Program-made: the position numbers and the translations under genes
Virus record (IMG/VR): IMGVR_UViG_3300031552_000001
Coordinates: 128,138 to 192,137 of that record
Direction: 5' to 3' (one strand)
Source of the DNA: a virus
Length of the DNA: 64,000 bases
Part shown: in pieces, positions 28,685-52,479 of the stretch
Numbering within the stretch: position 1 is the first letter of the stretch
Layout: every line of letters starts with the position of its first letter
Notes under the pieces: model-generated
What the model saw: the letters and a program-made list of their open reading frames with translations, nothing else
Told to the model about the DNA's origin: nothing
Database searches by the model: none

Positions 28685-28713
28685 AAAAATTGCACACCCA
28701 TACTGGAATAAGA
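28685..28713 (+). promoter_or_regulatory. phage promoter motif AAAA-N15-TGGAATAAGA
   Basis: Matches the recurring motif; followed by an AGAAGG/CCTTCT hairpin, GGAG SD and the ATG at 28766. Confidence 0.6.
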
Positions 28714-28765
28714 AATATGAACAGAAGGCAATTATTGTCCTTCTACAACCTACCTGGAGTTTAAA

Positions 28766-29602
28766 ATGTCAGTCCGCAACCTTGAGATCCTTGCAAGCAA
28801 TTACGCCTTTTCATTTCCAACAAAAATGCTCACAGCTATCAAAGAAAACGCAGTGTCGGGCCAAACAATAAACTATCGCACAACATTAGGCGGCAGAGCT
28901 GACATAGAGCAGAAGCGCCTAAGCTCTGTTCTAAATATGCGCCCGGTACCTGGAGTCATAGGTATTTCTGTCCGGCCAGACCCAGAGTTTGTTGAAATGT
29001 ACCGGCAAGCAGGAATATCTCTTGTCATCATCGACGAAGAGGCAGAAGGGGCGTCCACTATCGCAGTCGATAACTACAAGGGCGGGGTATTGGCCGCAAG
29101 AAGATTTCTTGAATCTGGAAAGAAAATCCCAGGCATCGTTTGCGGAAGAACAGAAGTCAAAGGTGGGATCAACGCAGTACAAAGACTACAAGGGTTCCAA
29201 GACACTCTGGAAAGCGCTGGAAGAGAGAAAGTTCTTTCTCAAAACATCAAACAAGTCCTAGATTACTCTTACCAGGATGGGATCGATTCCATGCAGGAAT
29301 TCTTCCGTCAACAAAACCCACCTGACTTCATATTCTCCGCAGCAGGCGACGATTGCGCCGTCGGAATATTGAGAGCCTCTGTGAATTTTGGACTTAGTGT
29401 TCCAAAGGACCTCTCGGTCATGGGCTTCGATGATCTGGAAATGGCAAAAATGACTACTCCCACATTAACGACGATACGGCAGCCTATAAAAGAAATTGCT
29501 GCAAGAGCGTATGGCATAGCGTCTACTATGGGGAATAGGTACATAGACAGCCCAGAACAGATAGTACTGGAACCAACTCTTGTAGAAAGAGACTCGGCGT
29601 AA
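28766..29602 (+). CDS. LacI/GalR-family effector-binding domain protein lacking the N-terminal HTH
   Basis: SLVIID...TIAVDNYKGGVLAARRF...RLQGF...PDFIFSAAGDDCAVGIL...VPKDLSVMGFDD...PTLTTIRQP; 278 aa, no HTH upstream in any frame inspected. Confidence 0.88.
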   Translation: MSVRNLEILASNYAFSFPTKMLTAIKENAVSGQTINYRTTLGGRADIEQKRLSSVLNMRPVPGVIGISVRPDPEFVEMYRQAGISLVIIDEEAEGASTIAVDNYKGGVLAARRFLESGKKIPGIVCGRTEVKGGINAVQRLQGFQDTLESAGREKVLSQNIKQVLDYSYQDGIDSMQEFFRQQNPPDFIFSAAGDDCAVGILRASVNFGLSVPKDLSVMGFDDLEMAKMTTPTLTTIRQPIKEIAARAYGIASTMGNRYIDSPEQIVLEPTLVERDSA

Positions 29603-29613
29603 CCCAAAACAAC

Positions 29614-29644
29614 AAAGGCCTCCTAACGGGAGGCCTTTTTAGCT
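29614..29644 (+). terminator. intrinsic terminator
   Basis: AAAGGCCTCC-TAAC-GGGAGGCCTTT followed by TTAGCT. Confidence 0.8.
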
Positions 29645-29645
29645 G

Positions 29646-29674
29646 TAAAAATAAGCCAGCATATGGGTATAAGA
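29646..29674 (+). promoter_or_regulatory. phage promoter motif TAAA-N15-GGGTATAAGA
   Basis: Exact motif geometry, intergenic. Confidence 0.6.
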
Positions 29675-29781
29675 CGAATGTTGGAACTACGAACGTGGAG
29701 CGCGACCTTGATGGTACGCAGCAAGACCGTCGTAGTGTCTGGTGGCGACATAAAGAGGCCTCAGCTACCGGACTCCAACAA

Positions 29782-30123
29782 TTACCCTCGCCCCAAGAAT
29801 CCGTGCTTCTTTTTTATCTCCTCTTGCTGCTGTTGATTTGCGTCAGCTCCTTCTGTAACAGCTTCGACTTCTGTCTTATCTTCAGTCTTACAAAGTATGC
29901 GAGCGTAGTACCCCCTGACCGCATTCCTACATCGTCTACACAGATCTCCAAACGACGTCTTCTCGTTTGAGAATGTAGCCTCAAATTCTGGGCCTGCGGG
30001 AGAAGGCAACTCAGATACGTTTTGGTTCTCTTTTCTCCCGCACCTATCGCACACTACTTCAACTACATCTCTTCTGGCCATTTTAGCTCCTCTTATATAA
30101 GTTACAGACCTTTTGGTTCTCAT
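29782..30123 (-). CDS. small zinc-binding protein
   Basis: CDRC and CRRC motifs. Confidence 0.55.
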   Translation of the reverse strand: MRTKRSVTYIRGAKMARRDVVEVVCDRCGRKENQNVSELPSPAGPEFEATFSNEKTSFGDLCRRCRNAVRGYYARILCKTEDKTEVEAVTEGADANQQQQEEIKKKHGFLGRG

Positions 30124-30131
30124 GCCTCTGA

Positions 30132-30374
30132 TTATGTATTTTGTGGGTATGTGATGTGGCCGCGCAATTTCTGATATATGTATCCTTCCACAGCCAGCCT
30201 TTCAATCTTCACCAAACCATCCGAGTAGTCAGGATGAAGAACCATACTAGCCTCGAAAGCTTCTACCTCTTTTCGGCATAAGACTCGCAGAGGAAGAGCA
30301 TTACCCCTATCAGACTCTTTCTTAGCTTCAGTCAGCTCTGACTCTGAAAAAGGAAATTCTAGTTCAAGCTTCAT
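30132..30374 (-). CDS. hypothetical protein
   Basis: AAAGGAG SD. Confidence 0.6.
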   Translation of the reverse strand: MKLELEFPFSESELTEAKKESDRGNALPLRVLCRKEVEAFEASMVLHPDYSDGLVKIERLAVEGYIYQKLRGHITYPQNT

Positions 30375-30453
30375 ACGGGCTCCTTTTAGCTAGTTTCCAT
30401 AAGATCGCTAGCCTATACATATTTTCTATGTTGGACATATTCAAGGAGGAATT

Positions 30454-30786
30454 ATGGGTTACCCAATAGCTCATCTGCCTTATCAGCGTACAGAAAAAGC
30501 AAAAAATGTTGTTTCAATTACAGTACCAAGAACCTGTTGGAAGCCGTGCGGGCCCGATGACGACATTACAGCATGCTTGACGTGCTGCCTCACGATAAAC
30601 GGTACAAACTACCATTTAACGGCGTATGCCGTAATGACTAATTCAGAGCTAGGACAAACTGCTGTTCACGCTCAATTTAACGACGAAGTAGACAAAATAT
30701 ACGAGTTAGGAAGACCAGTCGGGCCCTTCTGCACAACAGAAATTGACGGGCGAGACTACCTCCTAACTATAATCCCATACTGCTAA
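30454..30786 (+). CDS. hypothetical protein
   Basis: AGGGAGG SD. Confidence 0.6.
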   Translation: MGYPIAHLPYQRTEKAKNVVSITVPRTCWKPCGPDDDITACLTCCLTINGTNYHLTAYAVMTNSELGQTAVHAQFNDEVDKIYELGRPVGPFCTTEIDGRDYLLTIIPYC

Positions 30787-30791
30787 GGAGC

Positions 30792-31160
30792 GTGTTTATG
30801 GTATGCCAACGATGCGGGTATTGTTGCATTATGTGTTTTGTACCTATCGTAGTAGACGGAAGGGTAAAGAAAAAACCCCTCGGAGTTAAGTGCCCTCACC
30901 TTACAATAGAGCCTGACGGTACCGCAAGCTGCGCTGTTCATAACGAACCTTGGTATAAAGAAACCCCTTGCTTCTCCCACGGTAACCCGGACCTAGACCC
31001 GGATTTTGCTGCAAACCCCTCCAAGCCGTGCGCAATAGGAGTAATTCGCCGGAGTCACAAGCTGAATGTTTTACACGACGTTGTTGCTGATGTAGAGCTG
31101 GAAGACTTAGGCCCTTACCCAGTAGAAGAAGAAGACGACGTAAAAGAAAACCTTTCATAG
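30792..31160 (+). CDS. YkgJ-like CxxCxxCC cysteine-cluster protein
   Basis: CQRCGYCC...CPHL...CAVH...PC. Confidence 0.65.
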   Translation: MFMVCQRCGYCCIMCFVPIVVDGRVKKKPLGVKCPHLTIEPDGTASCAVHNEPWYKETPCFSHGNPDLDPDFAANPSKPCAIGVIRRSHKLNVLHDVVADVELEDLGPYPVEEEDDVKENLS

Positions 31161-31194
31161 CAAAGCGCGTGCTCTGCTCTAACCAGGGACAGTT

Positions 31195-32607
31195 ATGAGA
31201 AGATTCTTACAGCATCAAGGAAGAACAAGTGCACCTCAGTTATGGGAAATAGAAGTATTCGGCAACGCCGTAACACTAACATGGGGCCAACTTGGCGGCG
31301 CTATGCAACACACCACTCAAACCTTCAGTGGCGTAAATATAGGTAAAGCCAATGAAAAGACTCCTATACAGGTAGCACAAGAGTGGGCCGATAGACAAAT
31401 ACTTCTACGTACCAGAAAAGGGTACGTAGAAGTCGACCTTGAGACAAATAACCCAATAGAGGAGGCAGCCTCCTCTGAAATAGACTGGGAGAAGGAGCTG
31501 CCTCAGAATCTTCGGTTCTTCAAACCACAAAATAGTCTTAATGCCTACTGCACGAAACTTCTACAAGAAAAGAAAGCTACACTCCTGCGAAAAAGAGACG
31601 GGATGATGCACATCCTCTTAGTAAAAGAGGACGGAGATGTGGCCGTATACTCATCTACGCTTCAGGCGTGCCATAAAGACGAGCCTGAAATTCCGTGGGC
31701 CAGAAGATACCCTCATCTAGTAAAAGAGGTACGAGATTTAAATTTACCGGGCGGGACTGTGTTGTTGGGGGAGTTATGTACTGCCGCATGTCACGGGCAC
31801 AAGGACACATTCGGCATGCCCGTAGACGATTACAATTACGTAAGCACCATCACGAAATCCCTGACAAAATTAGCGCTAGAGAAGCAGAAAGAAAAAGGGT
31901 TCCTAGGTTTTTGTATTTGGGACATTGGGTTTTGGGCAAAAGAATGCGTCCTACAATCATGGACAGCTGATCAGCGATTCCTAAAAATAGGACAAATCCT
32001 GAACAACTCCAGTCGTCTTTACTTGACCTTTCCAGAAAGCGTGTACCTGCAAAGCTCTTATGCTGTCGTCCAGTCTTGGGATTCTAACGACCTAGAAATG
32101 GACTATGAATCCGATGATATGAGGAATGAGGTGTTGGAGCTCGCTAAAACCTTACAGTGGGAAGGTTGGGTAGTTATAGACGGGAAAGTTCCTTACGACA
32201 GCAGGTCTCATAGCTTTCACGGTAAAGCCGAACGGCCGAAGTTTATATGTAAACTAAAGCCTAAACTAGAAGCAGACTTTATAGCTAGATGGGACCCAGA
32301 CAACGGCATAGGTAGTTGGGGTAAGGGTAAGAAGTCTGCTGGAGTAGGTTCTGTAAATCTGTACCTATGGGATCCTGAAAAGAAAGAAGAGGTTTTCATC
32401 TGCGAAGCCGGAGGCGGTCTCACTGACGCAGATGTAAAATACTTCGCCAATCCTAGACTTTACCCACTTGTATGGGTTGTCGAATTTGACTCTTGGACCC
32501 CAAAGGGGGCTTTACGATTCCCTGTGTTTTTAAGAGAACGAAGCGACAAAAAGCCAGAAGAATGCACAACAGACCAGAGACCTTCACCAAAAGGAGAAGA
32601 GGAATGA
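31195..32607 (+). CDS. lig: ATP-dependent DNA ligase with N-terminal WGR-like domain
   Basis: KRDG (KxDG), EGWVVID, KLKP and LRFPVFLRERSDK motifs; N-terminal WEIEV...TWGQLGG. Confidence 0.85.
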   Translation: MRRFLQHQGRTSAPQLWEIEVFGNAVTLTWGQLGGAMQHTTQTFSGVNIGKANEKTPIQVAQEWADRQILLRTRKGYVEVDLETNNPIEEAASSEIDWEKELPQNLRFFKPQNSLNAYCTKLLQEKKATLLRKRDGMMHILLVKEDGDVAVYSSTLQACHKDEPEIPWARRYPHLVKEVRDLNLPGGTVLLGELCTAACHGHKDTFGMPVDDYNYVSTITKSLTKLALEKQKEKGFLGFCIWDIGFWAKECVLQSWTADQRFLKIGQILNNSSRLYLTFPESVYLQSSYAVVQSWDSNDLEMDYESDDMRNEVLELAKTLQWEGWVVIDGKVPYDSRSHSFHGKAERPKFICKLKPKLEADFIARWDPDNGIGSWGKGKKSAGVGSVNLYLWDPEKKEEVFICEAGGGLTDADVKYFANPRLYPLVWVVEFDSWTPKGALRFPVFLRERSDKKPEECTTDQRPSPKGEEE

Positions 32608-32825
32608 GGCGACACCCTAGAGAAATAATAGTTAGTGAAGCCGAAACAAAGCTAGCGTCTACCGTTGTAGAAACAATGTCACACTATAAGCTCACAGGAG
32701 GAGAATACTTATCTGTACTAACAGAAGTGTTTAGTCGCCTATTTCTTAACTTCTTGAAATACGAGATACGCAGAGAACGTCACGGAAACACAGACACCCC
32801 CGGAGGATTATTAGATGAGTCCTGA
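32604..32825 (+). CDS. hypothetical protein (start at ATG 32604)
   Basis: ATGA coupling to the ligase stop. Confidence 0.55.
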   Translation: MRRHPREIIVSEAETKLASTVVETMSHYKLTGGEYLSVLTEVFSRLFLNFLKYEIRRERHGNTDTPGGLLDES

Positions 32826-33279
32826 CAAATGCAACACAGGTATCCTTGTTATACTTAGAGGGCTTCCCGGAAGCGGAAAAAGCACCTTAGCTAAGAAAAT
32901 AGAGGAGACAGTAATGCTGCAAGACACGGTGATTTGCAGTGCAGATCGATTCTTTGAAGGCCCTAACGGGTACGAGTATAAAAAGGACCTTCAAGGAATA
33001 GCCCACACAGTCTGCCAAATTAGGGTTGAATACTTTATGCAGAAAGGGAGGCCTGTAATCATACTTGATAATACGAATATCAAAAACAAGGCTATGGTTC
33101 CCTATATAGATTTAGCCGAAAAGTTTAATTACTCGGTCTACTACATATTAGTTGGAGGTCTTACTCCTCAAGACATTGAGTGCTACGCCCAAAGACAGCA
33201 GCATGGTGTTCCTCTAGAACATATTGAGAGGATGGCATCCGAGTTTGAACATCTTATGGAGAGTGCAAGTGCATCCTAA
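32815..33279 (+). CDS. P-loop kinase, AAA_33 / polynucleotide-kinase-like
   Basis: RGLPGSGKSTLA Walker A; IICSAD; IILDNTN. Confidence 0.85.
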   Translation: MSPDKCNTGILVILRGLPGSGKSTLAKKIEETVMLQDTVICSADRFFEGPNGYEYKKDLQGIAHTVCQIRVEYFMQKGRPVIILDNTNIKNKAMVPYIDLAEKFNYSVYYILVGGLTPQDIECYAQRQQHGVPLEHIERMASEFEHLMESASAS

Positions 33280-33640
33280 CAAAACACAAGAACAAGAATA
33301 TGGGAGAGTGAAACAGACGTTTGTTCCGCCTTACAAACCCATAACTGTGACCGACGCAGAGCTGGCCTTCCCAGCTAAAGTAGTCGGAACTCTACTACCA
33401 AAATGGGAAGAAATACCCGAAGAGTTTAGGCGCATGCAAGGGTCGTGGGTCAGTATCGTTAATACGTGGTTTTGCCGCGGCATAGAAGACACTTTTTCTG
33501 TAAAGAAAGAGCATGACGCTAACAAGGTGTGGAGACACCTTGCAGCCTGTATGCACTCCTTTGAGCCCGATCACGCGCACAAAATTGCAGGAGTAGCTTA
33601 CTTAATGTCCCTTTGGGTTGAGCCTCCATCAGCGCTATAG
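33224..33640 (+). CDS. conserved phage hypothetical protein (true start probably downstream)
   Basis: AFPA...EIPEEF...WRHL...SFEPDHAHKIAGVAYLMSLW pattern recalled from phage proteins. Confidence 0.6.
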   Translation: MRGWHPSLNILWRVQVHPNKTQEQEYGRVKQTFVPPYKPITVTDAELAFPAKVVGTLLPKWEEIPEEFRRMQGSWVSIVNTWFCRGIEDTFSVKKEHDANKVWRHLAACMHSFEPDHAHKIAGVAYLMSLWVEPPSAL

Positions 33641-33679
33641 TGGTTTGCAACTAAACCCCCCGCTAAAGGAAGGCACGTC

Positions 33680-34429
33680 ATGTGGTCAAAAAGAGTAGAC
33701 AAGTCAAAAATCCATCCCGGACTTGTTGAAGTCGTAAGGCGCACATTGGAGACATTAAGGAAGGAAGTACAGCCTTTCATGGTGTATTCCGGGCTTAGAA
33801 CTTTCGAAGAGCAAAACAGGCTATACGCTATAGGAAGAACAAAGCCGGGAAAAGGCATCGTGACAAAAGCCAGAGGAGGCCAAAGCATGCATAACTACGG
33901 TCTTGCAGCAGATTTGGCCCCGTTCAACCTTTTGACTAAAGACCCAGACGATATTTGGTGGCCCGACCCGGAAGAGAGGGCTGGTAGTGTATGGCAGCCA
34001 TTAGGGGAGATACTAGAAATGACTGCCCGACAAGAGGAGGAAGAGTTACCTGACGACATAGATATAGAATATGAGTGGGGCGGCAGGTGGAGGTTTAGGG
34101 ATGTTCCTCATTGCCAGGTAAGAACTACCGTAAAAGAGCTTAATGCGGGCCATTACCCTTGGTGTGACGACGTCGAGTGGCTTGTAAATGCGCACACGAC
34201 TTTTCTATTTGGGACAGACTGGATGATTAGAAGAGTCCAGCGTTTACTTACAGACCAAGGCTACAATTTAGGCCCCGTGGATGGAGTTAGCGGAGCAAGA
34301 ACTGTCTCGGCAATTATGCAATTTAGAATCAACAATAAAATCGGAAGAGAATACAGTCCGCTAAGCAAACTATTTATAGAGGCTCTGGTTAGAAAAGACC
34401 ACGAGGATAGGAGCCGAAAGAGAACGTAG
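33680..34429 (+). CDS. endolysin: M15-family (L-Ala-D-Glu-type) peptidase plus C-terminal peptidoglycan-binding domain
   Basis: SGLRTFEEQNRLYAIGRT...GGQSMHNYGLAAD...WGGRW...DVPHCQ; VQRLLTDQGYNLGPVDGVSGARTVSAI. Confidence 0.88.
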   Translation: MWSKRVDKSKIHPGLVEVVRRTLETLRKEVQPFMVYSGLRTFEEQNRLYAIGRTKPGKGIVTKARGGQSMHNYGLAADLAPFNLLTKDPDDIWWPDPEERAGSVWQPLGEILEMTARQEEEELPDDIDIEYEWGGRWRFRDVPHCQVRTTVKELNAGHYPWCDDVEWLVNAHTTFLFGTDWMIRRVQRLLTDQGYNLGPVDGVSGARTVSAIMQFRINNKIGREYSPLSKLFIEALVRKDHEDRSRKRT

Positions 34430-34432
34430 AAA

Positions 34433-34696
34433 ATGAACCAACAAAAAGACCAGAAAGAAGCAATAGGGTACGCCATGACAGTAGAGGAGATAGGAGAAAA
34501 GCTAGGACTGTCAAAATCTGTTGTAGACAGGATATTGAATAAGGCTTTGGCCAAGTTAAGAAAAATTCCGCATAGAGGCCTTTTGGAGTGCGAAGCGGAC
34601 AGGGAGTCTTTTCACCCTACGACCCAAAAAAGAAGGTTAGAGCCTACTCACTTTCGTAGCGTGGATGACTATTGGCCGGAATTTCTGTTGAAGTAA
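34433..34696 (+). CDS. sigma-70 region-4-like HTH protein
   Basis: MTVEEIGEKLGLSKSVVDRILNKALAKLRK. Confidence 0.7.
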   Translation: MNQQKDQKEAIGYAMTVEEIGEKLGLSKSVVDRILNKALAKLRKIPHRGLLECEADRESFHPTTQKRRLEPTHFRSVDDYWPEFLLK

Positions 34697-34767
34697 GCCC
34701 AAACATCAAACTTGTCAGCCCTCTGTAGTAGGTTCACGCAAAGAGGACATACACAAAGGAGTCTAAA

Positions 34768-35778
34768 GTGGAACCCAAGAAGCTAATCAATCATTTCGTT
34801 ATTTGCCTAGACCGCAGTGGCTCAATGCAGCCTATACGCAAAAACGCCGTAGATACGTATAACCAAAACGCTAGATCTATCCGAGATGGGGCTAAAAACA
34901 GCGGGCAGGAGGCTACAATCTCCCTTACAACATTTGGAGGGAGTGTATTAACCCATCACTTTTGCGATCCGGTAGATAGCTTAAGTAGCGAGTACTCTGA
35001 CTACCGCCCTATGGGGACCACTCCGCTATTCGACGCAGTAGCTAATATGATCTATAAGTTGAAGGACCGTAAAGACTCTGAAGACGACAATGTGAGCTAC
35101 ATGTTCATAATCATCACGGATGGCGAAGAGAATGCTTCTAGCATCCAAGCCGATGAATTCAATCGATTAGTGGCTAGTGTTCAAAAGACAGACCGTTGGA
35201 GCTTCGCCTTTCTAGTGCCCCCAAACGCCGCCCGTAACTTCTGCCTCAAATTCAATATCCCAGAAGGGAATGTGAAAGAGTGGGAGGCAACTGCACGGGG
35301 GATGCAAGAAGCTGCTCGGCAGGTAGACGCAGGAATTAGCAGCTATTATGCAACTCGTTCGTTGGGGATGAAGAGTACGACTGGCTTCTTTCAAACAGAT
35401 ATGGCCAAAATCTCGGTACATGAAGTAAAAAACCGACTGGTTGATATCAGGGACAAGGTAAAGCTTATTGACGTGAACCGCACTTCGGCTATTCGAGAGT
35501 TTGTAGAGCGCGAATTAGGGCAAAGCTACCAAACTGGGCGCGCTTTCTACCAGCTCATAAAAGACGAGAAGATACAGTACCACAAGAAGGTCATGCTCAA
35601 GGACCGAGGAGATAACGCGGTATATGCCGGCACGGAGGCTCGTCATCTGCTTGGACTACCTGATGGGGTGGATGTTCGTGTTCGCCCTGGAGATCATGCT
35701 AACTGGGATATTTTTGTACAAAGCACCAGCGTCAACCGAAAACTTCTACCAGGCACTAAACTCCTGTACCTACTCTAG
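34768..35778 (+). CDS. vWA-domain protein with phage-type C-terminal domain
   Basis: CLDRSGSM MIDAS, GTTPLFDA, IITDGEENAS. Confidence 0.85.
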   Translation: MEPKKLINHFVICLDRSGSMQPIRKNAVDTYNQNARSIRDGAKNSGQEATISLTTFGGSVLTHHFCDPVDSLSSEYSDYRPMGTTPLFDAVANMIYKLKDRKDSEDDNVSYMFIIITDGEENASSIQADEFNRLVASVQKTDRWSFAFLVPPNAARNFCLKFNIPEGNVKEWEATARGMQEAARQVDAGISSYYATRSLGMKSTTGFFQTDMAKISVHEVKNRLVDIRDKVKLIDVNRTSAIREFVERELGQSYQTGRAFYQLIKDEKIQYHKKVMLKDRGDNAVYAGTEARHLLGLPDGVDVRVRPGDHANWDIFVQSTSVNRKLLPGTKLLYLL

Positions 35779-45627: not shown

Positions 45628-45640
45628 GGCCTCTACCGAT

Positions 45641-45668: not shown

Positions 45669-45674
45669 AAAGGT

Positions 45675-46616
45675 TCAAACCAGCTTCTTCGAAATGATGT
45701 AGCGTAACATAGCTTCCTTCTGGCCTATCTGTTCTACCGCTTTATCTAACCCAGGGCCTAATCTAGTATCTCCTAGAGTAAACCACGACCCCTCCTTCGA
45801 TATCAGTCCGACATCCAGACTTAAACGGAATAAGTCGAGAAGTTTATTTATACCCCCACGCTTTCCAAGCGGCAGTCTAATCATCCTTGCGGGCCGAGCT
45901 AGCGTATTCGCTACTATGTCCACAACTATATCTTTCTCGCCTCCTTTAGTGCTGCCCTTAGCCAAAAACATCCTAGTGCTAAACTGGCTCACGAGTTTTT
46001 TTGCAGCCGTATCCACCTCTGCTTTCACAAAAAAGTTGCGGGGGTCTACGCTATACTTGCCCCTTACCTGATTGGTCATAACAATGCTGGAAGATGGATT
46101 AAGAATCGGTAGGGCCTTCTCCAAAAAATAGCCAATCATTGATGGCCAACACTCAGAGCTGCCGTACGTAGGCCGTAGACTCGTAACAGTGTCAAAAGAG
46201 AGAAGTAGTCTTTCCTCCCTATGACGCCGCAAAAACGTCATTGCTTCGTGTAACACGTACTCGCCATGGCCCGTAACAGTAACCAGCGAGGCTAAATCGA
46301 CGCCTACCTCCTTCATGTAAGGGACGTCTAAATATTCCGTAGGGCATAGGGCTACAATAAAACCATTATTTTGGGCTTGCCTCAGTATCTCATAGAGAAT
46401 AGTGGTTTTACCGCAAGAATACTCTCCATAAAGTTCGACGGCCCCCGAAGGCAATCCCCCGCCAAGAGCTATATCTAAACTAAGTATGCCCGTATCTGTA
46501 GACCTACCTGCACTCACTTTTGAACTTTTCGATAGGCCTCCTAAAACGTCACACAGCTCAGAGTGCTTAGTACGAACAGAATTCTTCATGTCCTCTATAG
46601 ACTTTGTAAACAGCAT
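45675..46616 (-). CDS. recA: RecA/UvsX-like recombinase (divergent)
   Basis: STDTGILSLDIALGGGLPSGAVELYGEYSCGKTT (Walker A), IVMTNQVR, GLISKEGSWF. Confidence 0.88.
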   Translation of the reverse strand: MLFTKSIEDMKNSVRTKHSELCDVLGGLSKSSKVSAGRSTDTGILSLDIALGGGLPSGAVELYGEYSCGKTTILYEILRQAQNNGFIVALCPTEYLDVPYMKEVGVDLASLVTVTGHGEYVLHEAMTFLRRHREERLLLSFDTVTSLRPTYGSSECWPSMIGYFLEKALPILNPSSSIVMTNQVRGKYSVDPRNFFVKAEVDTAAKKLVSQFSTRMFLAKGSTKGGEKDIVVDIVANTLARPARMIRLPLGKRGGINKLLDLFRLSLDVGLISKEGSWFTLGDTRLGPGLDKAVEQIGQKEAMLRYIISKKLV

Positions 46617-46660
46617 AAATGTCTCCTGTTACTGAACTAGGCGTAAGTAGTACACGCACT

Positions 46661-46689
46661 TCTTATCCCGAATAGAACTGAAACCTTGC
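46661..46689 (-). promoter_or_regulatory. phage promoter motif GCAA-N15-CGGGATAAGA upstream of recA
   Basis: Motif match 45 nt upstream of the ATG. Confidence 0.5.
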
Positions 46690-46725
46690 GCCGGAAAACA
46701 GACGACTCGTTTTGTCATAAGTAAA

Positions 46726-47772
46726 GTGGAGAAGTTCTTACTCCTCACTCACCCCAGGGGAAACGGAGACTACCCTATGATTGAGCCAGAAGAAGTTCGC
46801 GCTTTAGTAGTTTGCTCGCCTGAACGTCTAGGCCTCCTAGCCGAGAGTATGGGAATACCTTTTCAGGAAGCGCAAGACATTAGAAGCCAAGCTACTAACT
46901 TGGTACTGGGAAAGTGTTCTTTATGCGGGGCTCCTGCACCGTCAGGCATATGCGAAGAATGCCAAGCTTCCAATTCTTCTATGTTTAACTGCTCAGGAGC
47001 AGAGTTCTTACAGAAGCTGAAGCCCGCAACCGTAGTTCTAAAAAGAACCTGTACAGAATGTAACGCTCCTGTAGCTCTAAGCGCCTCGTACCTGCTTTGG
47101 AAGATTATCAGGAGGCCCGCCGCTAAGCCGAAAGGACTGTGTAAAGCTTGTCTGAAAAACAGAAAAAGCAAAAAAAGAGCGGAGTCTAGCTCTAACGCGG
47201 CAACACGGAGCAGCAACTTCATGTTCCGCCCGTTTGACGGGCATAAGGCCCTCGAGGCTATGAAGGAAACACTACGGAAAACTACCGATAGAAGCGCTAT
47301 AAGCAAAAAAGGCTCAAATACTGAAAAACACAGGGTTTTTCAGGTAAAAGAAGAGTGGACGAGCAAAACGCCCGTCTATAACTCATTTGCACCAGACCTT
47401 CTGGTGTATCCGGAGGAACACATGTCAGAGCAACAAGCAGCTTCGCCTCAAAAAGAAAAACACACAAAAAATCCATTCACAACTGACCCCGGCAAAGTGG
47501 CCAACCTTCTCGGTCAGCTCAGCAGTGCCCCCTCTGCTAAAGAAGCAGAGAAGATTCTCATTGAGAATCGAAAAACTCTCACTGGCGCCTTTCATGACAT
47601 TCGCCGAGCCGAGCGAGTGGGAATGCCTCTGTACGAGAGGTTCTTGAATCGAGCCGCAGAAAACCGTGTTTGGGACAAAATTCGGCTTGCTCGTGACGGC
47701 GTCCTAACGGGCGTAGCATGCGTCTTCGGTTGGAAGGGCCTCAAGTGGGTGATCGGTTACATCCGCTCGTAG
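46726..47772 (+). CDS. multi-zinc-ribbon protein with C-terminal hydrophobic helix (may be two fused units)
   Basis: CSLC, CEEC, CTEC and CKAC motifs. Confidence 0.5.
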   Translation: MEKFLLLTHPRGNGDYPMIEPEEVRALVVCSPERLGLLAESMGIPFQEAQDIRSQATNLVLGKCSLCGAPAPSGICEECQASNSSMFNCSGAEFLQKLKPATVVLKRTCTECNAPVALSASYLLWKIIRRPAAKPKGLCKACLKNRKSKKRAESSSNAATRSSNFMFRPFDGHKALEAMKETLRKTTDRSAISKKGSNTEKHRVFQVKEEWTSKTPVYNSFAPDLLVYPEEHMSEQQAASPQKEKHTKNPFTTDPGKVANLLGQLSSAPSAKEAEKILIENRKTLTGAFHDIRRAERVGMPLYERFLNRAAENRVWDKIRLARDGVLTGVACVFGWKGLKWVIGYIRS

Positions 47773-47785
47773 GCATCAAGCCTGC

Positions 47786-47817
47786 AGCTAGGGTAGAGCG
47801 AAAGCTCTACCCTAGCT
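47786..47817 (+). terminator. 14-bp perfect hairpin with GAAA loop
   Basis: AGCTAGGGTAGAGC-GAAA-GCTCTACCCTAGCT directly after the stop codon. Confidence 0.65.
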
Positions 47818-47845
47818 TCCACTCAACAAGCAACACTTAGCCCGT

Positions 47846-47872
47846 GAAAGCGTCGATGTTTTCGGTATAAGA
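47846..47872 (+). promoter_or_regulatory. phage promoter motif GAAA-N13-CGGTATAAGA
   Basis: Motif match upstream of the structured leader and histone gene. Confidence 0.55.
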
Positions 47873-47960
47873 AAATTGGAACCCAATAGTGGCTCTTACA
47901 TTACCAACAAGAACATTTCCTTAAAACAGTATGAGCCCACTGTTGAGTTGCCTAGTCTCC

Positions 47961-48038
47961 GCGGTGCGGGTTCGGGCTTTCCTAAATTTGTTCCTCCAAT
48001 AAGTGTAGTTCTCCGGGGAAAGTCCGAACCTGCGCCGT
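47961..48038 (+). ncRNA. candidate structured RNA or leader: 23-bp stem with five G-U pairs
   Basis: 47961-47983 pairs with 48016-48038; every non-Watson-Crick position is G-U on the plus strand. Confidence 0.45.
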
Positions 48039-48078
48039 AATTATTGTTTTTTACAACCCACTCCTCTAAGATGCGCTC

Positions 48079-48342
48079 ATGGCCAACAACGACGAAACAA
48101 CAAGCGAAGTACCTCTCCTCGTAAAAATGAGCAAACTCATGGACGTATACAAGAGTATGCAAGAAGAGAACGAGGAAGGAAATATCGTACCTCTAAGAAT
48201 GCATGTGTCTAAGGAGTTCAAAGAAGAGCTCAATGTGTTTATTCATAACACACTCTTTGACTGTGCCGAGCATGCTATTGAAAAAGGAAGAAAGAAGCTA
48301 CTGCCAGAAGACGTGCCTTCGTCTTTACAGTGGGACGAGTAG
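48079..48342 (+). CDS. bacterial-type histone-fold protein (Bd0055-like)
   Basis: PLLVKMSKL...MHVSKEFKEELNVFIHNTLFDCAEHAIEKGRKKLLPEDV matches the alpha1 / alpha2 / A-x-x-x-G-R-K-x-(V/L)-x-x-x-D histone-fold pattern. Confidence 0.72.
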   Translation: MANNDETTSEVPLLVKMSKLMDVYKSMQEENEEGNIVPLRMHVSKEFKEELNVFIHNTLFDCAEHAIEKGRKKLLPEDVPSSLQWDE

Positions 48343-48455
48343 CTTTCAACGCCCAATATAAGAAGTTGGTTGGTTGAGACTTCACCTAAACTCGACGCTT
48401 TAAACGCTCGAGCTTAATGAGCTCCTCCGGAACCTCCGAAGTCTCTACCTTCCAG

Positions 48456-48490
48456 GGGGTGAGCTGTCTCCAGGCGGCTCACCCCTATTT
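48456..48490. terminator. hairpin between convergent genes
   Basis: GGGGTGAGCTG/CGGCTCACCCC followed by TATTTT. Confidence 0.6.
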
Positions 48491-49063
48491 TCTTTTAACC
48501 AGTCCATATACACTTCTGAGAAAAATCACGTCTCTGTCCGTGACTGTATACACCCCGTTAAGCTCCCCGCCATACATGGCGCTTCCATGAATCTTATCAT
48601 GAGTTAATCCAAGGCAATGACCTAACGCGTGGACAAAATCTCGCTCTAATTCTCCGACAGTTTTATGTTTCCATATAGGCTTTACAAATATAGTAGCTTT
48701 GGACAAAGTGCCTCGTTCATCTACCCAATATCTAGTGTACATGGTAGAAAAACTTTTGTCTTCTTTCCTAGATGCCGCCACTACAGAAATTACGTTCGAG
48801 CTTACTCCAACCTCGCCAGGGGTAATAAACAGGGGCAGCCCTACCTTCTTGTTCCAATATGCGGATGCGGAAATCAGGGCCTTTAGCAATTTTCCGTCAT
48901 TTCTCTTGAGTTCTGTACTCACCGCTAAAAGAAGTGGCGGCCACTTTCGATCAAACGACTTTATATCTGGGGGCAGGTACGATAGTTTTCGTCTATAGGG
49001 CCACACCAGCAGTGCCACCATCCCCAGAAGGGTAAGGACCCCTATCGTTCCTAGAAAAAGCAT
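48485..49063 (-). CDS. membrane-anchored matrixin/M10-like metalloprotease homologue with catalytic Glu replaced by Ala
   Basis: N-terminal TM helix; HALGHCLGLTH...SAMY in place of HExxHxxGxxH plus Met-turn. Confidence 0.7.
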   Translation of the reverse strand: MLFLGTIGVLTLLGMVALLVWPYRRKLSYLPPDIKSFDRKWPPLLLAVSTELKRNDGKLLKALISASAYWNKKVGLPLFITPGEVGVSSNVISVVAASRKEDKSFSTMYTRYWVDERGTLSKATIFVKPIWKHKTVGELERDFVHALGHCLGLTHDKIHGSAMYGGELNGVYTVTDRDVIFLRSVYGLVKRK

Positions 49064-49276
49064 TTTCGAATCTCTCCGTGTTCAGTAAGACACTGCCCCG
49101 GAGCGTATCATTACAATGAGAAAGGGCCAATATTTCTATGAAAAGAGAACTCATTTCTAATAAGGGAGACACTAAGGCGCCTCCTTTAAAGTCCGCAGTC
49201 GCTATTGGAGTTGTCTCTTTCCTGGCGGCTTTTCTCTTAATGACGTGTTGAGTGTGCAATAAAGTACACGAAATTT

Positions 49277-49510
49277 TTGAGGATAGGTGAGATGAAGCAC
49301 AAACTTGGAGCCACTGGGGATTTTCCTGAAGGAAAGCTAAACGAGCAAGATAAAGGAGGCCTTAAGCTTGCAGTAGGCGTCAAAAATGGCAAAGTGATAG
49401 TACACTTCGGTAACGAGCCCGTCCTTTGGATAGGCATGAATCCAGAAGACGCTAGGCAACTAGCTGCATTCTTAATATATAAAGCTAACCTCGCCGACCC
49501 ACAATCGTGA
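49277..49510 (+). CDS. conserved phage hypothetical protein
   Basis: LGATGDFPEGKLNEQDKGGL...WIGMNPEDARQLA pattern. Confidence 0.6.
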   Translation: MRIGEMKHKLGATGDFPEGKLNEQDKGGLKLAVGVKNGKVIVHFGNEPVLWIGMNPEDARQLAAFLIYKANLADPQS

Positions 49511-49531
49511 AGAGACTGCTTTTCTATTCCC

Positions 49532-49894
49532 TTAATATCTTACAAGGCGCCGAACCCGTAAGGCGGGGCGCCTCCAGTTTTTGCTCCCAGTTGCAGTTCT
49601 TCTCTTAGTGGGAAATTGTCTAGTCATGTACAAGGCCGGCTTACGCGCTTTCGCGGGCTTAGCAACTCGGACTACATTCACTATCGGGTACTTAACCTTC
49701 TCAACGATCGTGGGAGGACCAGGCTGTACGTACTCTGCGGTAGAATCACTCCAGTGCGTGATGGTCGTTACAGTTACGGAACCGAAACTCGCAGCGGTAG
49801 AATCACTCCAGTATGTGCTGGTCGTTCTTGTATAACAACACGGTTCTGTATAACTATACAAAGAGGCCATTGGGCCAAATACCCGTTTCTGCAA
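49532..49894 (-). CDS. hypothetical low-complexity protein with internal WSDSTA duplication
   Basis: 19-nt direct repeat at 49737 and 49794, 57 nt apart, in frame. Confidence 0.35.
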   Translation of the reverse strand: MQKRVFGPMASLYSYTEPCCYTRTTSTYWSDSTAASFGSVTVTTITHWSDSTAEYVQPGPPTIVEKVKYPIVNVVRVAKPAKARKPALYMTRQFPTKRRTATGSKNWRRPALRVRRLVRY

Positions 49895-49914
49895 AGAAAA
49901 CGCAACAACATAGT

Positions 49915-49973
49915 GATGTAGTCAAATGTAGTCAAACTTCACTGAGTGAGGAATGACTACATTTGACTACATC
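49915..49973. repeat. perfect 20-bp inverted repeat, each arm built from two TGACTACAT boxes
   Basis: GATGTAGTCAAATGTAGTCA (49915-49934) and TGACTACATTTGACTACATC (49954-49973). Confidence 0.95.
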
Positions 49974-50157
49974 CCACAGCAAGCAGGAGTAGGAGTGTCA
50001 ATCTCATACGGAGTGCCCGTTTATACTTATTGTATTAGAGGTCTTCCAGGGTGTAACTGTGGGCTCAATAAGCATCGAGGCTCAGGATGCCCAGGAGCTC
50101 CTGTTTCCAATCGTGAATATCCCACACCAAAAGTAAACACAGACAAAGGAGACGCGG

Positions 50158-51012
50158 ATGAAAGACCCGTTAAATACTATGAGGAAATTGATCGAAGAGG
50201 GGTTAATAAAAGAGACCTTCGTACATCACAAAATCATAGAAGACTACGGGGTACCTGCGCGTCTTCTTGAGCCAGCTCGTGAAGCTGCCTTCTCATTGTT
50301 ACGCACTATGAACGCTACTTGGCGCGCCCCATGCCCTTATTGTGGTAAGGAAATTTTTATAGGGGACGGTATCTCTGGGAATTACGGAGTTAAATGGGGT
50401 CACCCAAAATGTGTTACTGCCTCGTTCGAAACCGGCACCTTACTAGCGTCTAAAGCCAACGCCGACAGAAGGCCGAAAGCTCTTACGAAAAGACTTAGAA
50501 AGTCTAAACAGCCAGAGCGCACGCAGTCTCTTTTGGTAGCTAAAGAAAGAGATCATTTGGCAGAGATTCCCGATTACGGAGATAAGACAAAAGAAATGGA
50601 TATAAACACCTGTAAGTTTCCAAAAGAAACGGTTAAGATTCTAGTAGAAGTCTGCCGAGCATGGCCGAGCCAGCTAGTCGACCCATGCCCATACTTTGCG
50701 CCTATTCACATAACAACTTTACACCTACCGAGAGATCTTCGCTTAAATATTAAGATGCTTCTTATGGATATGAAAAACGAATCCCTAAAATCTAAGACAG
50801 AAAAAATACAAAGAATGTGGGACGTGACGTGGGAAAAATATATTAAACAGTGGTTCGAGCGCTACAAACGGACAATGGTACAAGCTCCCTTCTGTCCGAT
50901 ACACCAACTATCCCATGACCCAAAAGATCATGTTCAATTACACGTACAGACTCTCGACGGCATCGTGCACCGTAAAGAACTATTGTGGTACTGCCCTGTC
51001 AGCGAAAAATAA
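50158..51012 (+). CDS. hypothetical protein with Cys-Pro zinc knuckles
   Basis: AAAGGAG SD; CPYC and CPIH motifs. Confidence 0.6.
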   Translation: MKDPLNTMRKLIEEGLIKETFVHHKIIEDYGVPARLLEPAREAAFSLLRTMNATWRAPCPYCGKEIFIGDGISGNYGVKWGHPKCVTASFETGTLLASKANADRRPKALTKRLRKSKQPERTQSLLVAKERDHLAEIPDYGDKTKEMDINTCKFPKETVKILVEVCRAWPSQLVDPCPYFAPIHITTLHLPRDLRLNIKMLLMDMKNESLKSKTEKIQRMWDVTWEKYIKQWFERYKRTMVQAPFCPIHQLSHDPKDHVQLHVQTLDGIVHRKELLWYCPVSEK

Positions 51013-51032
51013 AATAAGGTAGCGGTATAAGA
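51004..51032 (+). promoter_or_regulatory. phage promoter motif GAAA-N15-CGGTATAAGA
   Basis: Exact geometry; heads the unit containing the receiver gene. Confidence 0.6.
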
Positions 51033-51115
51033 GTAAAGAACAGGATAGAGACCTTCGCAAAAGGCCTCGCAGCCAAAGGCGGACGTTTATCTATCTAACG
51101 GAAGAAACAATCTTC

Positions 51116-51481
51116 TTGCCTCTTACTCTAACCAAAGGAAAAGACATGAATACCGATAACCTTGATGTGGTTGTGTGGAACACTGTCACGAATGAATTCA
51201 CAACAGAGGTCTACGAGGTCAACGAGGATAGGGTGCCTCTACAGGGGGCCCAGCCGATGAGTCGTGCAGAGGGCGCCTCATCACTTCTTGAATACAAAGA
51301 CCTGGAGTGGTTCGTGTCTTCACGGCAGCACGTCTACATCGGCATCCCAAAATTGTTGACCGGCGCGATATCCACTTTTGATTTGGCTTGTGCGGCTGTT
51401 GACGCCATGTTTGGCAGCCCGGAGTCGTTGGAGAAAATCAAAGCGGAACTAGGTCAAGTTTCCGCATTGACCTTTCACTGA
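51116..51481 (+). CDS. hypothetical protein
   Basis: ORF; start probably ATG near 51146. Confidence 0.5.
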   Translation: MPLTLTKGKDMNTDNLDVVVWNTVTNEFTTEVYEVNEDRVPLQGAQPMSRAEGASSLLEYKDLEWFVSSRQHVYIGIPKLLTGAISTFDLACAAVDAMFGSPESLEKIKAELGQVSALTFH

Positions 51482-51494
51482 GCCGGAGGAAATC

Positions 51495-51848
51495 ATGGAT
51501 CAAGTCAAGAAGACTGTACTGATCGTGGACGACGAGCAAAACATCGCAAAGTCGATCTACAGGATGTTCAAAGGGGCGAAGTGGAATCCTCTCATAGCGT
51601 CTTCTGTGTTTGAGGCTCTTCCACTAATCCCCAAGGCTGACGTTATCCTCTCGGATTACGACCTTGGTCCTGGAGGTTGCGGAAAAGACATCATCAAAGC
51701 CGCGGGAAAAATCCCCGTAGTGTTATTCACAGCAACAACAAAAGAAATTGACCATCCTTTCGTAGTGAAAAAACCCTCACCGTTTGAAGACATCTTGGAG
51801 GCAGTATCCAACACCCTTCGTCCGTCTTCCGACATCTTTGAAAAGTAA
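51495..51848 (+). CDS. stand-alone response regulator receiver (CheY-like)
   Basis: VLIVDDE, ILSDYDL (phospho-Asp), VVLFTA, VKKP; CCGGAGG SD. Confidence 0.88.
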   Translation: MDQVKKTVLIVDDEQNIAKSIYRMFKGAKWNPLIASSVFEALPLIPKADVILSDYDLGPGGCGKDIIKAAGKIPVVLFTATTKEIDHPFVVKKPSPFEDILEAVSNTLRPSSDIFEK

Positions 51849-51868
51849 ACGCCTTCTCCGGTATAAGA
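51840..51868 (+). promoter_or_regulatory. phage promoter motif GAAA-N15-CGGTATAAGA
   Basis: Exact geometry. Confidence 0.6.
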
Positions 51869-51915
51869 CAGGTGATAGGCCAGGTATTTCTGCCTGCCGA
51901 CAACCGGAGGAACTC

Positions 51916-52080
51916 ATGGCGAATTTCGTAGTAGTGAAATTGAAATGTCGAAAATGCGGCCGCACGGTTAATCGCGCAAAGAACTCATGCGCATGTGATA
52001 AGCCCGATGTGGAGAAGGTAGAGATACCTGTCTTTACCAAACCAGGTAAGCGGGGTGCTAGAGCGTCGTCCTCTCCATAG
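51916..52080 (+). CDS. 54-aa zinc-ribbon protein MANFVVVKLKCRKC...
   Basis: AACCGGAGG SD; CRKC and CAC motifs. Confidence 0.6.
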   Translation: MANFVVVKLKCRKCGRTVNRAKNSCACDKPDVEKVEIPVFTKPGKRGARASSSP

Positions 52081-52088
52081 CGCCCCGT

Positions 52089-52130
52089 GGGGATTCAGGT
52101 TTAATCGCCTGAATCCCCTATTACTTAGCT
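52089..52130 (+). terminator. hairpin terminator
   Basis: GGGGATTCAGG/CCTGAATCCCC then TATTACTTAGCT. Confidence 0.6.
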
Positions 52131-52137
52131 ATGAGAA

Positions 52138-52165
52138 GCGGGTTCAAATCCCGCTCCCTGTACCA
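52138..52165 (+). pseudogene. isolated tRNA 3-prime fragment (T-arm, acceptor strand, CCA)
   Basis: GCGGG-TTCAAAT-CCCGC-TCCCTGT-A-CCA with no matching 5-prime half found nearby. Confidence 0.6.
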
Positions 52166-52183
52166 AATTTAGCATACCATTTT

Positions 52184-52260
52184 GTCCCCGTAGCTCAGAT
52201 GGATAGAGTTCCTGCCCTCTAAGCAGAGAGTCGAAGGTTCGAGTCCTTCCGGGGACGCCA
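52184..52260 (+). tRNA. tRNA-Arg (TCT), encoded CCA, C at position 33
   Basis: GTCCCCG/CGGGGAC acceptor stem, D-arm, CCTGC-CCTCTAA-GCAGA, TTCGAGT T-loop. Confidence 0.9.
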
Positions 52261-52287
52261 AAATGGAGCAGCTTTCGAACGATAAGA
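52259..52287 (+). promoter_or_regulatory. phage promoter-like motif CAAA-N15-AACGATAAGA upstream of tRNA-Ile2
   Basis: Motif geometry; ends 8 nt before the tRNA. Confidence 0.45.
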
Positions 52288-52295
52288 CTTTACAC

Positions 52296-52372
52296 GGACC
52301 TGTAGCTCAGACGGTTAGAGCAAGCGGCTCATAACCGCACGGTCGGGGGTTCGACTCCCTCCGGGTCCACCA
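52296..52372 (+). tRNA. tRNA with CAT anticodon, most likely tRNA-Ile2 (lysidine) rather than Met
   Basis: GGACCTG/CGGGTCC acceptor stem, A73, GCGG-CTCATAA-CCGC; resembles bacterial Ile2 (GGACC...GGCTCATAACC...GGTCCACCA); lacks initiator features. Confidence 0.8.
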
Positions 52373-52379
52373 AAACGCG

Positions 52380-52456
52380 GGTTGTGTAGCTCAGTAGGTC
52401 AGAGCGCCGGTCTCCAAAACCGGAGGTCGTGGGTTCGACTCCCGCCCTTCCCGCCA
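52380..52456 (+). tRNA. tRNA-Trp (CCA) with poorly paired acceptor stem (possible pseudo-tRNA)
   Basis: Canonical CCGGT-CTCCAAA-ACCGG arm and T-arm; acceptor GGTTGTG versus CCTTCCC has three mismatches. Confidence 0.7.
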
Positions 52457-52479
52457 CTTCTACAAATTGGGGGCTAAAC

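Follow-up and report, generated by a model that had tools for sequence, protein, structure and literature searches.

The final 64 kb of the virus record IMGVR_UViG_3300031552_000001 (64,000 nucleotides, hereafter the window) contain a recurring sequence motif that heads short transcription units, three of which encode regulator-like proteins: a LacI-type sensor without a helix-turn-helix head, a single-domain receiver, and a small acidic protein with a predicted histone fold. On balance, we judge it likely that the motif marks one general promoter class serving short units of accessory or early type, among them units with regulator-fold products. Early transcription of the units, in all likelihood by the holoenzyme of the host, would yield products that act on the host. 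The original prediction had regarded the same genes as a coordinated host-reprogramming set, assembled by the phage from stripped-down parts of host regulatory machinery.

The record comprises 192,137 bp, is classed as linear, and repeats approximately 138 bp at both ends (G000:C1 1–138 and 192000–192137). This terminal overlap indicates that the genome is probably complete, and the window would represent its accessory arm. A copy of the motif lies inside the terminal repeat, which makes site 63942 of the window identical to site 80 of the genome. By sequence comparison, no cultured phage is closely related: a megablast search of the region against cultured phages returned only matches to tRNA-Trp, and the RecA-like gene matched cultured phages at no more than 33% identity.

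Predicted promoter motif and transcription units

Aligned with one another, 31 sites in the phage and its relatives yield the consensus GAAA-N16-(c)GG(T/G)ATAAGA-N5-G, with an A-rich block (GAAAA) at −20 to −15, a gap of 16–17 nucleotides (nt) to the core, and a T-rich stretch ending in C directly before the GG. The core, GG[TG]ATAAGA, occurs at 16 sites on both strands of the genome; 60 first-order Markov simulations gave 3.15 sites on average and never more than 9 (Poisson p = 2e-7). Of the 16 observed sites, nine are intergenic, in 9.3% of the genome (p = 3e-6); because the open reading frames (ORFs) were predicted with a crude home-made gene caller, the intergenic counts are approximate. 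At 12 of the 16 sites, a G stands exactly 5 nt past the motif (+14), a position that had been left free in the search (p = 1.6e-5). Nine strict sites are located between 28 and 64 kb of the window, and the motif is retained at the corresponding positions in the related loci L007, L009, L010/L095, L096, L102, L103, and L016. The earlier claim that a shared motif heads the units is therefore well founded.

The arrangement of GAAA, a spacer of 16–17 nt, TATAAG, and a predicted start 6–7 nt downstream fits the geometry of promoters of the sigma-70 family and, as far as sequence can tell, also resembles that of sigma-28 sites. The G five bases downstream would be the likely start, and the predicted transcripts of six units begin 30–42 nt upstream of the start codon. 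A scan with a generic sigma-70 consensus called none of the motif sites, because the −10-like hexamer ends in G rather than T. This final G, which is atypical for sigma-70, would also suit a promoter of the phage's own RNA polymerase, a single open frame of 2674 amino acids (aa) that fuses a beta domain (Rpb2_6) to a beta' domain (Rpb1_2). No sigma region 2 (Sigma70_r2) was found in the phage genome, and the motif, including its flanking c/GG and GA bases, is far stricter across the clade than a typical host promoter. If that enzyme, perhaps delivered with the virion, were to read the motif, transcription would be independent of the host. We consider this possible but unlikely, given that a two-block layout with an A-rich block, a spacer of 16–17 nt, a TATAA core, and a start 6–7 nt further on is of the type used by sigma-dependent holoenzymes, and that the cassettes within late operons (the sensor and lipoprotein units) look like morons, which are normally transcribed by the host.

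One promoter type would thus drive about 13 short units, a number that includes one-mismatch variants backed by the matching site of a relative or by their context (28705, and 63092 on the minus strand). The site at 28705 has a counterpart in L016 that reads GGGATAAGA, followed by a short leader hairpin that is retained there through compensatory changes. Two GGTATAAGA sites, at 955 (+) and 61564 (−), were rejected as chance occurrences; they lie inside ORFs and lack the downstream G. The units typically close with hairpins, some of which covary. Most consist of one gene or one RNA with a hairpin terminator behind it, an organization reminiscent of early genes or morons.

Regulator-like genes are present in three of the ~13 units. 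Among the others are the CDS-free RNA behind the site at 29666; the RecA-like gene, whose motif has counterparts in L007 (8583), L010 (9239), and L102 (8463); a Zn-ribbon ORF, whose unit is conserved entire in L007 and closes with a covarying hairpin; and further units at 55225, 58464, 60937, 63092 (−), and 63942 that contain ORFs without assigned function. Outside the window, the motif occurs with a 373-aa ORF without assigned function at genome position 24371 and, at 117512, heads the gene for a lipoprotein-like Recep_L_domain protein (117567). Since RecA-like, lipoprotein-like, Zn-ribbon, and other ORFs share the motif, it defines a transcription class and not a regulon picked by function. 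The proposal that the regulatory parts stand under one promoter class is correct with respect to the shared type, but the motif is not reserved for them. There is nothing unusual in a "regulon" of this kind: in phages, a shared promoter type often serves numerous early or accessory genes that have nothing else in common, and host-takeover genes and morons are usually organized in this way.

Individual units show additional features. At 60937, the ATG of a 59-aa ORF coincides with the predicted transcript start, so that the mRNA may be leaderless. The predicted transcript at 58464–58502 opens with a perfect 10-bp hairpin (ATGAGAAAAG / CTTTTCTCAT). The sequence TTTTAGC(C/T) recurs between terminator hairpins and promoter motifs, both in the window (29640–29650 and 47805–47815) and in the upstream regions of L009, L010, and L096.

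The acidic histone-like protein

Of the three regulator-like genes, only that of the histone-like protein is conserved across the clade. It is syntenic, preceded by a divergent RecA-like gene, the motif, and a long leader, in L007/L008 (56% protein identity; 199,555-bp contig), L102/L103 (50%), L010/L011/L095 (42%), and L009 (47%); more remote family members occur in similar phage-like contexts. The motif upstream of the gene is kept in L007, L009, L010, L096, L102, and L103. An exhaustive HMMER scan was needed to recover ten small relatives of 80–132 aa: a word-indexed protein search returned only the record of the protein itself, called as 67 aa, and neither tblastn against cultured phages nor a single-protein scan of viral contigs returned anything. 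In a scan for further loci, the 11-member alignment proved too divergent, and a 6-member alignment gave three metagenome loci. The protein has no Pfam match at E ≤ 1 (including PF00808 and PF00125) and no PHROG match, and the only Pfam matches among its relatives are to DUF1931 (3 of 11, best E = 0.003) and Histone (1 of 11, E = 0.08). Residues Y24, G34, F47, N52, R71, and D78 are invariant in the 11-member alignment.

Modeling supports an alpha3-truncated histone fold of the helix-strand-helix type. The family profile matched 9f2c_A (HTkC) first among PDB sequences (E = 1.6e-4), followed by HBb, HPhA, NF-YC, H4, and HMfB; almost all matches have histone folds, and all align on alpha2-L2-alpha3 and the GRK-x-L...ED motif. 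An AlphaFold2 model built with the alignment (predicted local distance difference test [pLDDT] score 82) comprises alpha1, a beta-hairpin insert in L1, an alpha2 of 24 residues, and an alpha3 of three residues (76–78). Alpha3-truncated histones are defined by an alpha3 helix of only 3–4 residues (PMC11390915), and the predicted alpha3 falls within this definition. Foldseek found nothing with a single-sequence model; the alignment-built model was required, and it placed HBb, HTkC, and HLp on top (probability 1.0, E = 0.02–0.08). In VIA-align, HTkC (Z 6.6, 1.2 Å) and HBb (Z 6.4, 1.5 Å) each aligned over 58 of 58 residues, values for these and HLp ranged from Z 6.0 to 6.6 and from 1.2 to 1.5 Å over full chains, and all 50 listed rows were histone folds. 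The spacing of R71 and D78 equals that of GRKTxxxxD in HBb; the position of the Thr is occupied by Lys in the protein of the window and by Thr in 5 of the 11 members.

The protein probably forms a handshake homodimer. A homodimer prediction scored 0.85 (best of three controls, 0.00), a mark reached by 20 of 30 proteins solved as same-chain pairs and by 1 of 23 solved as single chains. Three runs shared at least 98% of the contacts, with a partner pLDDT of at least 85, and the predicted contacts of L1 with L2 and of residue 55 in alpha2 with its counterpart in the partner chain correspond to the histone handshake. Since histone dimers exist as solved structures, the pass may reflect likeness to them. 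Taken together with the leader described below, the profile, fold, and dimer evidence supports the earlier identification of a histone at 48079, behind a structured leader, as far as the fold is concerned.

A relationship to SUMO/ubiquitin-like beta-grasp domains, suggested by HMMER matches of residues 31–86 to repeats in giant Rad60-SLD-repeat proteins (E = 1e-11 to 3e-8), is hardly credible. These E-values sum six to eight near-identical repeats, so the matches are not independent, and a profile comparison gave a probability of only 7%; on these grounds the SUMO-like reading was rejected. No family member has a Pfam ubiquitin match at E ≤ 1, the C-terminal Gly-Gly is absent, the two structure predictors agree on a long alpha2 and on dimerization by handshake, and every fold match is a histone.

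The fold and dimer geometry, as predicted, are those of the DNA-binding proteins HBb, HLp, and HTkC; the R71–D78 clamp is invariant, and the Thr in L2 is present in 5 of 11 members. The protein might be a genuine component of chromatin, binding and compacting the DNA of phage or host like HBb, HLp, or the phage histones already described. Its charge makes this improbable. All 11 members are acidic (isoelectric point [pI] 4.1–4.8; 16–24 acidic versus 7–14 basic residues), an acidic loop is inserted in L1, and the DNA-contacting Thr in L2 is replaced in the protein of the window and its four closest relatives. Such strong acidity makes a basic partner, either a host histone or another nucleoid protein, more likely than the wrapping of DNA; the protein would accordingly imitate histones and not package DNA. 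If this is true, a fold copied with reversed charge would be the first candidate for a viral antagonist of bacterial chromatin; bacterial histones have only recently been recognized, and a phage antagonist would provide a handle on their role.

The leader of the gene (47878–48078) folds at z −5.5 versus shuffled sequences. Comparison with L007 shows compensatory changes in the 5' hairpin and the 23-bp stem, as well as conservation of the U-run that follows this stem. L009, L010, and L096 have the same order of promoter, long leader, and hairpin with T-run at little sequence identity, and the hairpin with T-run is kept in four lineages. In three relatives, an AcrVA2-like gene is located a few kilobases downstream of the histone-like gene (L009, 3087–4286; L010, 13467–14750; and the P0130 contig).

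The headless sensor, the receiver, and their distribution

The sensor at 28766 matches PF13377 (E = 1e-19), PF00532 (3e-13), and PF13407 (6e-12), i.e., Peripla_BP_3, Peripla_BP_1, and Peripla_BP_4, and has no Pfam match to the helix-turn-helix family PF00356, as had been predicted. It aligns to positions 68–333 of the 343 positions of phrog_11145, which means that the head portion is absent. The gap between the gene and its divergent upstream neighbor is 143 nt, and an ORF that overlaps upstream contains no domain.

The second part of the claim, that the phage had stripped down the protein, is contradicted by its relatives. A protein search returned approximately 30 relatives of 270–280 aa (35–67% identity), all without PF00356, whereas full-length LacI proteins were found only at ≤32% identity. 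A scan of species-representative genomes located 78 bacterial loci of this headless family (~276 aa) in Myxococcota, Bdellovibrionales, Spirochaetia, Ignavibacteriota, Bacteroidota, and other taxa, often with several copies per genome. The best loci are in metagenome-assembled genomes (MAGs) of Myxococcota (43%) and Bdellovibrionales (40%) and in Spirochaetia. The contexts are chromosomal, with glycoside hydrolases as neighbors in an Anaeromyxobacter MAG and a Bacteroidota-like contig. In at least 20 of 28 checked loci, fewer than 35 codons are open upstream, which leaves no space for a head. A split gene was considered and rejected: the small ORFs upstream of bacterial homologs are not LacI heads (one is zinc-ribbon-like, the other without a hit). 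Since the headless form already exists in the bacterial family, the phage would have acquired the LacI-type core in this state instead of stripping a repressor. The family (L017–L094) is expanded: a single Anaeromyxobacter MAG has at least five loci, Ignavibacteriota have several, and "Proteobacteria OH_CBB_164" has many. A single-protein scan of viral contigs with the sensor and a literature search on headless LacI-family proteins returned nothing and nothing relevant, respectively. The phage copy offers a compact system for asking what the sensor core does without its head.

The receiver at 51495 is a stand-alone domain, as claimed. Although it scores below the curated cutoff of the Pfam family Response_reg (PF00072; 22 versus 30.2 bits), it aligns end to end with the receivers of MtrA, RegX3, BaeR, and Spo0F in PDB (E = 9e-5 to 3e-3), and D12, D13, D54, and T79 match MtrA positions. 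Its ortholog in L007 (59% identity), which has PF00072 on record, retains the acidic pair, D54, T79, and K93-P94. Judging from these residues, the phospho-acceptor site is intact, and the protein would act as a single domain with this site in place. A single-protein scan of viral contigs gave one weak, unrelated match (L001). The first gene of the receiver unit, a 111-aa ORF, found nothing in Pfam or PHROG and no usable lead in Atlas.

Sensor, receiver, and histone-like gene co-occur with their promoters in the nearest relative, represented by L007, L008, and L016, three loci from two runs with adjacent accession numbers. L016, a contig of 1,148 bp, comes from the same run as L008 and encodes a sensor with 67% identity; its promoter, leader hairpin, and terminator and the RNA unit that follows are the same as in the window. 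The receiver was found in L007 only, and neither receiver nor sensor was found in the 10–20 kb beside the histone-like gene of L010/L095, L102, and L009. The expected co-occurrence across relatives therefore extends to the trio in the nearest relative and was not seen in these intervals of three lineages; the receiver and the sensor appear to be lineage-specific accessories, sporadic in the very sense that the original prediction had opposed to a coherent set.

These data bear on the idea of a dedicated, co-evolving set of decoys, in which the sensor would soak up ligand, the receiver would soak up phosphate, and the nucleoid protein would act as a dominant negative, all co-regulated to rewire a signaling-rich host. 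All three genes lack output domains, share a promoter type, and recur jointly in the nearest relative; the histone-like family is acidic, as expected of a mimic that does not bind DNA; and the best named relatives of the sensor are from Myxococcota and Bdellovibrionales, while the taxa with alpha3 "bacterial dimer" histones include Bdellovibrionota and Myxococcota_A (PMC11390915). By contrast, the motif heads about ten other units of unrelated content, the three genes form separate units up to 23 kb apart, receiver and sensor were not found beside the histone-like gene of the more distant relatives, and the headless form of the sensor is older than its acquisition by the phage. We consider a dedicated set improbable; coordination is supported by no more than the common promoter type and a single close relative. 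Roles as sinks or dominant negatives are nevertheless reasonable hypotheses for each protein individually, above all for the acidic histone mimic.

The reading that we prefer, a general promoter class for accessory or early-type units, has to be weighed against several points. The −10-like element ends in G instead of T, and the phage's own polymerase could read the motif; start sites, timing, and reading polymerase are predictions from sequence; and the enrichment in intergenic regions is as approximate as the crude gene calls. The absence of receiver and sensor from distant relatives covers only the 10–20 kb beside the histone-like gene. The histone fold is based on predicted models and weak E-values, with no match to the Pfam histone families, and the acidity that argues against DNA wrapping points to no particular partner. 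We infer timing, polymerase, and all targets; motif statistics, conservation, domains, folds, and distribution are direct results of the analysis.

The guess that the host resembles a myxobacterium or Bdellovibrio agrees with the best named homologs of the sensor, the closest histone folds, and the taxa with alpha3 histones, all of which are weak pointers. The G+C content of Bdellovibrio is about 50% and that of Myxococcus near 69%; the phage (47.5%) is nearer to Bdellovibrio. A far-reaching scenario, which we regard as improbable, would make the acidic dimer an early anti-histone that is conserved in a clade of jumbo phages of ~190–200 kb and expressed through a riboregulated leader. By mimicking or pairing with HBb-type alpha3 histones in a host similar to Bdellovibrionota or Myxococcota, or by binding a different basic protein of the nucleoid, it would dismantle the host nucleoid, accompanied in some lineages by a phosphate-draining receiver and a headless LacI-type protein that poisons or titrates sugar regulators.

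Structured RNAs, tRNAs, and comparison with known systems

The coordinates of the features are listed in Table 1. Three stretches free of coding sequence (CDS) fold into stable structures, as had been predicted: the RNA at 29680–29779, for which 0 of 200 shuffled sequences folded as well and whose first ~42 nt are near-identical in L016; the stretch at 52085–52183 (z −4.5); and the stretch after the tRNAs (52457–52630), for which no relative was found. The 62-nt element in the leader of the receiver unit (z −2.1) is 98% identical over 59 nt to L007 (17958–18016), whereas the proteins of the phage and L007 are only 55–67% identical. By this comparison, the element is under sequence-level constraint; it has no Rfam match and no second copy in the genome, and no viral contig matched the receiver leader in an exact-pattern scan. 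At gathering thresholds, Rfam found only the three tRNAs; all other matches at E ≤ 1 were chance-level hairpins. With the promoter consensus and two very highly conserved leader RNAs, this uncultured clade of jumbo phages offers defined elements that can be put to experimental test.

Table 1. Coordinates of features in the window
Feature	Position	Strand	Details
Motif sites within 28685–52460	28705 (variant), 29666, 47864, 51024, 51860; 46669	+; − (46669)	
Promoter-like site, one-mismatch variant	28685..28718	+	TAAAA ... GGAATAAGA at 28705–28713; predicted start ~28719
LacI-type (periplasmic-binding-protein type I) sensor without helix-turn-helix head	28766..29602	+	278 aa; Pfam, PHROG
Terminator hairpin closing the sensor cassette	29614..29638		Kept in L016 via compensatory changes
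Promoter motif	29646..29674	+	TGTAAA ... GGTATAAGA at 29666–29674; L016 form GTTATAAGA
CDS-free structured RNA, three-way junction	29680..29779	+	−42.7 kcal/mol, z −3.5; T-run near 29810–29825
RecA-like gene	45675..46669	−	RecA / RecA_C domains; upstream motif GGGATAAGA at 46661–46669
Promoter motif of histone-like unit	47864..47872	+	Predicted start 47878
Leader of histone-like unit	47878..48060	+	5' hairpin, long stem 47961–47983 / 48016–48038, U-run; terminator or attenuator type
Acidic histone-fold protein (predicted), alpha3-truncated type	48079..48342	+	87 aa, pI 4.8; profile, model, dimer prediction
Strong intrinsic terminator of histone-like unit	48455..48486	+	14-bp stem, then ATTTTCTTTT
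Promoter motif and leader element of receiver unit	51024..51098	+	Motif 51024–51032; 62-nt element 51038–51098
111-aa ORF, first gene of receiver unit	51146..51481	+	Without counterpart in L007
Single-domain CheY-like receiver	51495..51848	+	117 aa; D12, D13, D54, T79, K93
Promoter motif, Zn-ribbon ORF, and closing hairpin	51860..52118	+	Motif 51860–51868; 54-aa ORF 51916–52080; hairpin 52089–52118
tRNA-Arg(TCT), CAT tRNA, tRNA-Trp(CCA)	52184..52456	+	ARAGORN, Rfam
Structured stretch after tRNAs	52457..52630	+	z −4.9; 17-bp closing stem

The three tRNA genes are the only ones in the genome; L007 carries tRNA-Leu(TAA) and tRNA-Trp instead. They follow the Zn-ribbon unit at 51860, but a hairpin intervenes, so that the earlier statement that tRNA-Ile2 and tRNA-Trp are headed by the motif applies only indirectly; the tRNA-Arg beside them had not been listed. 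The CAT tRNA was called Met by ARAGORN, and its nearest phage tRNAs are annotated as either Met or Ile. The pair G1-C72 indicates that it is not of the initiator type, and the sequence contains C4-G69 and C5-G68, which were compared with the TilS identity rule of E. coli. Among the codons of the phage, AGA is the commonest for Arg (33%) and ATA the commonest for Ile (40%); together with the elongator-type features, the frequency of ATA makes the assignment as tRNA-Ile2 plausible. A tRNA-like 3' half between the Zn-ribbon hairpin and tRNA-Arg (52119–52170; T arm GCGGGTTCAAATCCCGC, then TCCCTGTACCA), which was called by neither ARAGORN nor Rfam and is absent from L007, may be a tRNA remnant.

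Downstream of the tRNAs (52942–53385) lies a gene for a Pyr_excise pyrimidine-dimer DNA glycosylase (E = 1e-21) that is conserved in L102. A 440-aa protein with a Hint domain (PF13403, E = 2e-7) is encoded at 61449–62771 (−) amid otherwise small accessory ORFs. A long, perfect palindrome occupies a divergent gene junction (49915–49973), with chance-level Rfam matches to microRNA-like hairpins on both strands.

The units resemble phage early promoters and morons in being self-contained cassettes of promoter, gene, and terminator, some of them within late operons. Promoters of sigma-28 (FliA) have the consensus TAAA-N15-GCCGATAA, and the motif shares with them the two-block geometry, the spacing, the ATAA core, and a start 6–7 nt after the −10-like block. 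GAAA-N16-GGTATAAGA is nevertheless close to neither the sigma-70 nor the sigma-28 consensus, and the phage has its own polymerase.

Like the LacI/GalR repressors, the sensor possesses an effector core of the periplasmic-binding-protein-like type I (PF13377, PF00532, PF13407); unlike them, it lacks PF00356 as well as the room for it and belongs to a separate family of ~276 aa. The receiver shares with CheY, Spo0F, and the divergent receiver (cREC) of jumbo phages the stand-alone format with an acidic pair, a phospho-acceptor Asp, a Thr, and a Lys. The cREC genes sit beside NAD-processing genes (Iyer et al. 2021, PMC7824862), whereas the neighbors of the receiver are the 111-aa ORF and the Zn-ribbon ORF, and no kinase, Hpt protein, chemotaxis gene, or NAD/ADP-ribose enzyme adjoins it. 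A precedent for action against two-component systems of the host is PIT4, which is reported to be an early protein of Pseudomonas phage LSL4 with such an activity (PMC10714779).

The histone-like protein superimposes on HBb/Bd0055 (8FVX, 8CMP, 9EZZ), HLp (9QT0), and HTkC (9F2C) with a root-mean-square deviation of 1.2–1.5 Å over 56–58 residues and shares with them the short alpha3, the GRK-x-L...ED motif with its invariant Arg and Asp, and, by prediction, the handshake dimer. It differs in that the phage-encoded family is acidic (pI 4.1–4.8) and the known proteins are basic, in ~20 extra residues (acidic N-terminus and beta-hairpin insert in L1), in the lack of conservation of the Thr in L2, and in a divergence too large for Pfam. 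The original prediction knew of no description of such a coordinated set; as to this part of it, earlier papers have described proteins with a histone fold in phages (PMC11390915, PMC13681535). The 2025 survey of Caudoviricetes considered hidden Markov model matches at E below 1e-5 (PMC13681535); the present family gives no such match here and was probably missed. It is also distinct from the "phage histones" of Schwab et al. 2024, which have a C-terminal tetramerization helix and no RxT...D motif (PMC11390915), whereas the protein of the window ends nine residues past D78 and keeps R71 and D78. What it has in common with both the phage histones (PMC11390915) and the bacterial-like histone-fold proteins of Caudoviricetes (PMC13681535) is an alpha3-type fold and an origin in metagenomic tailed phages.

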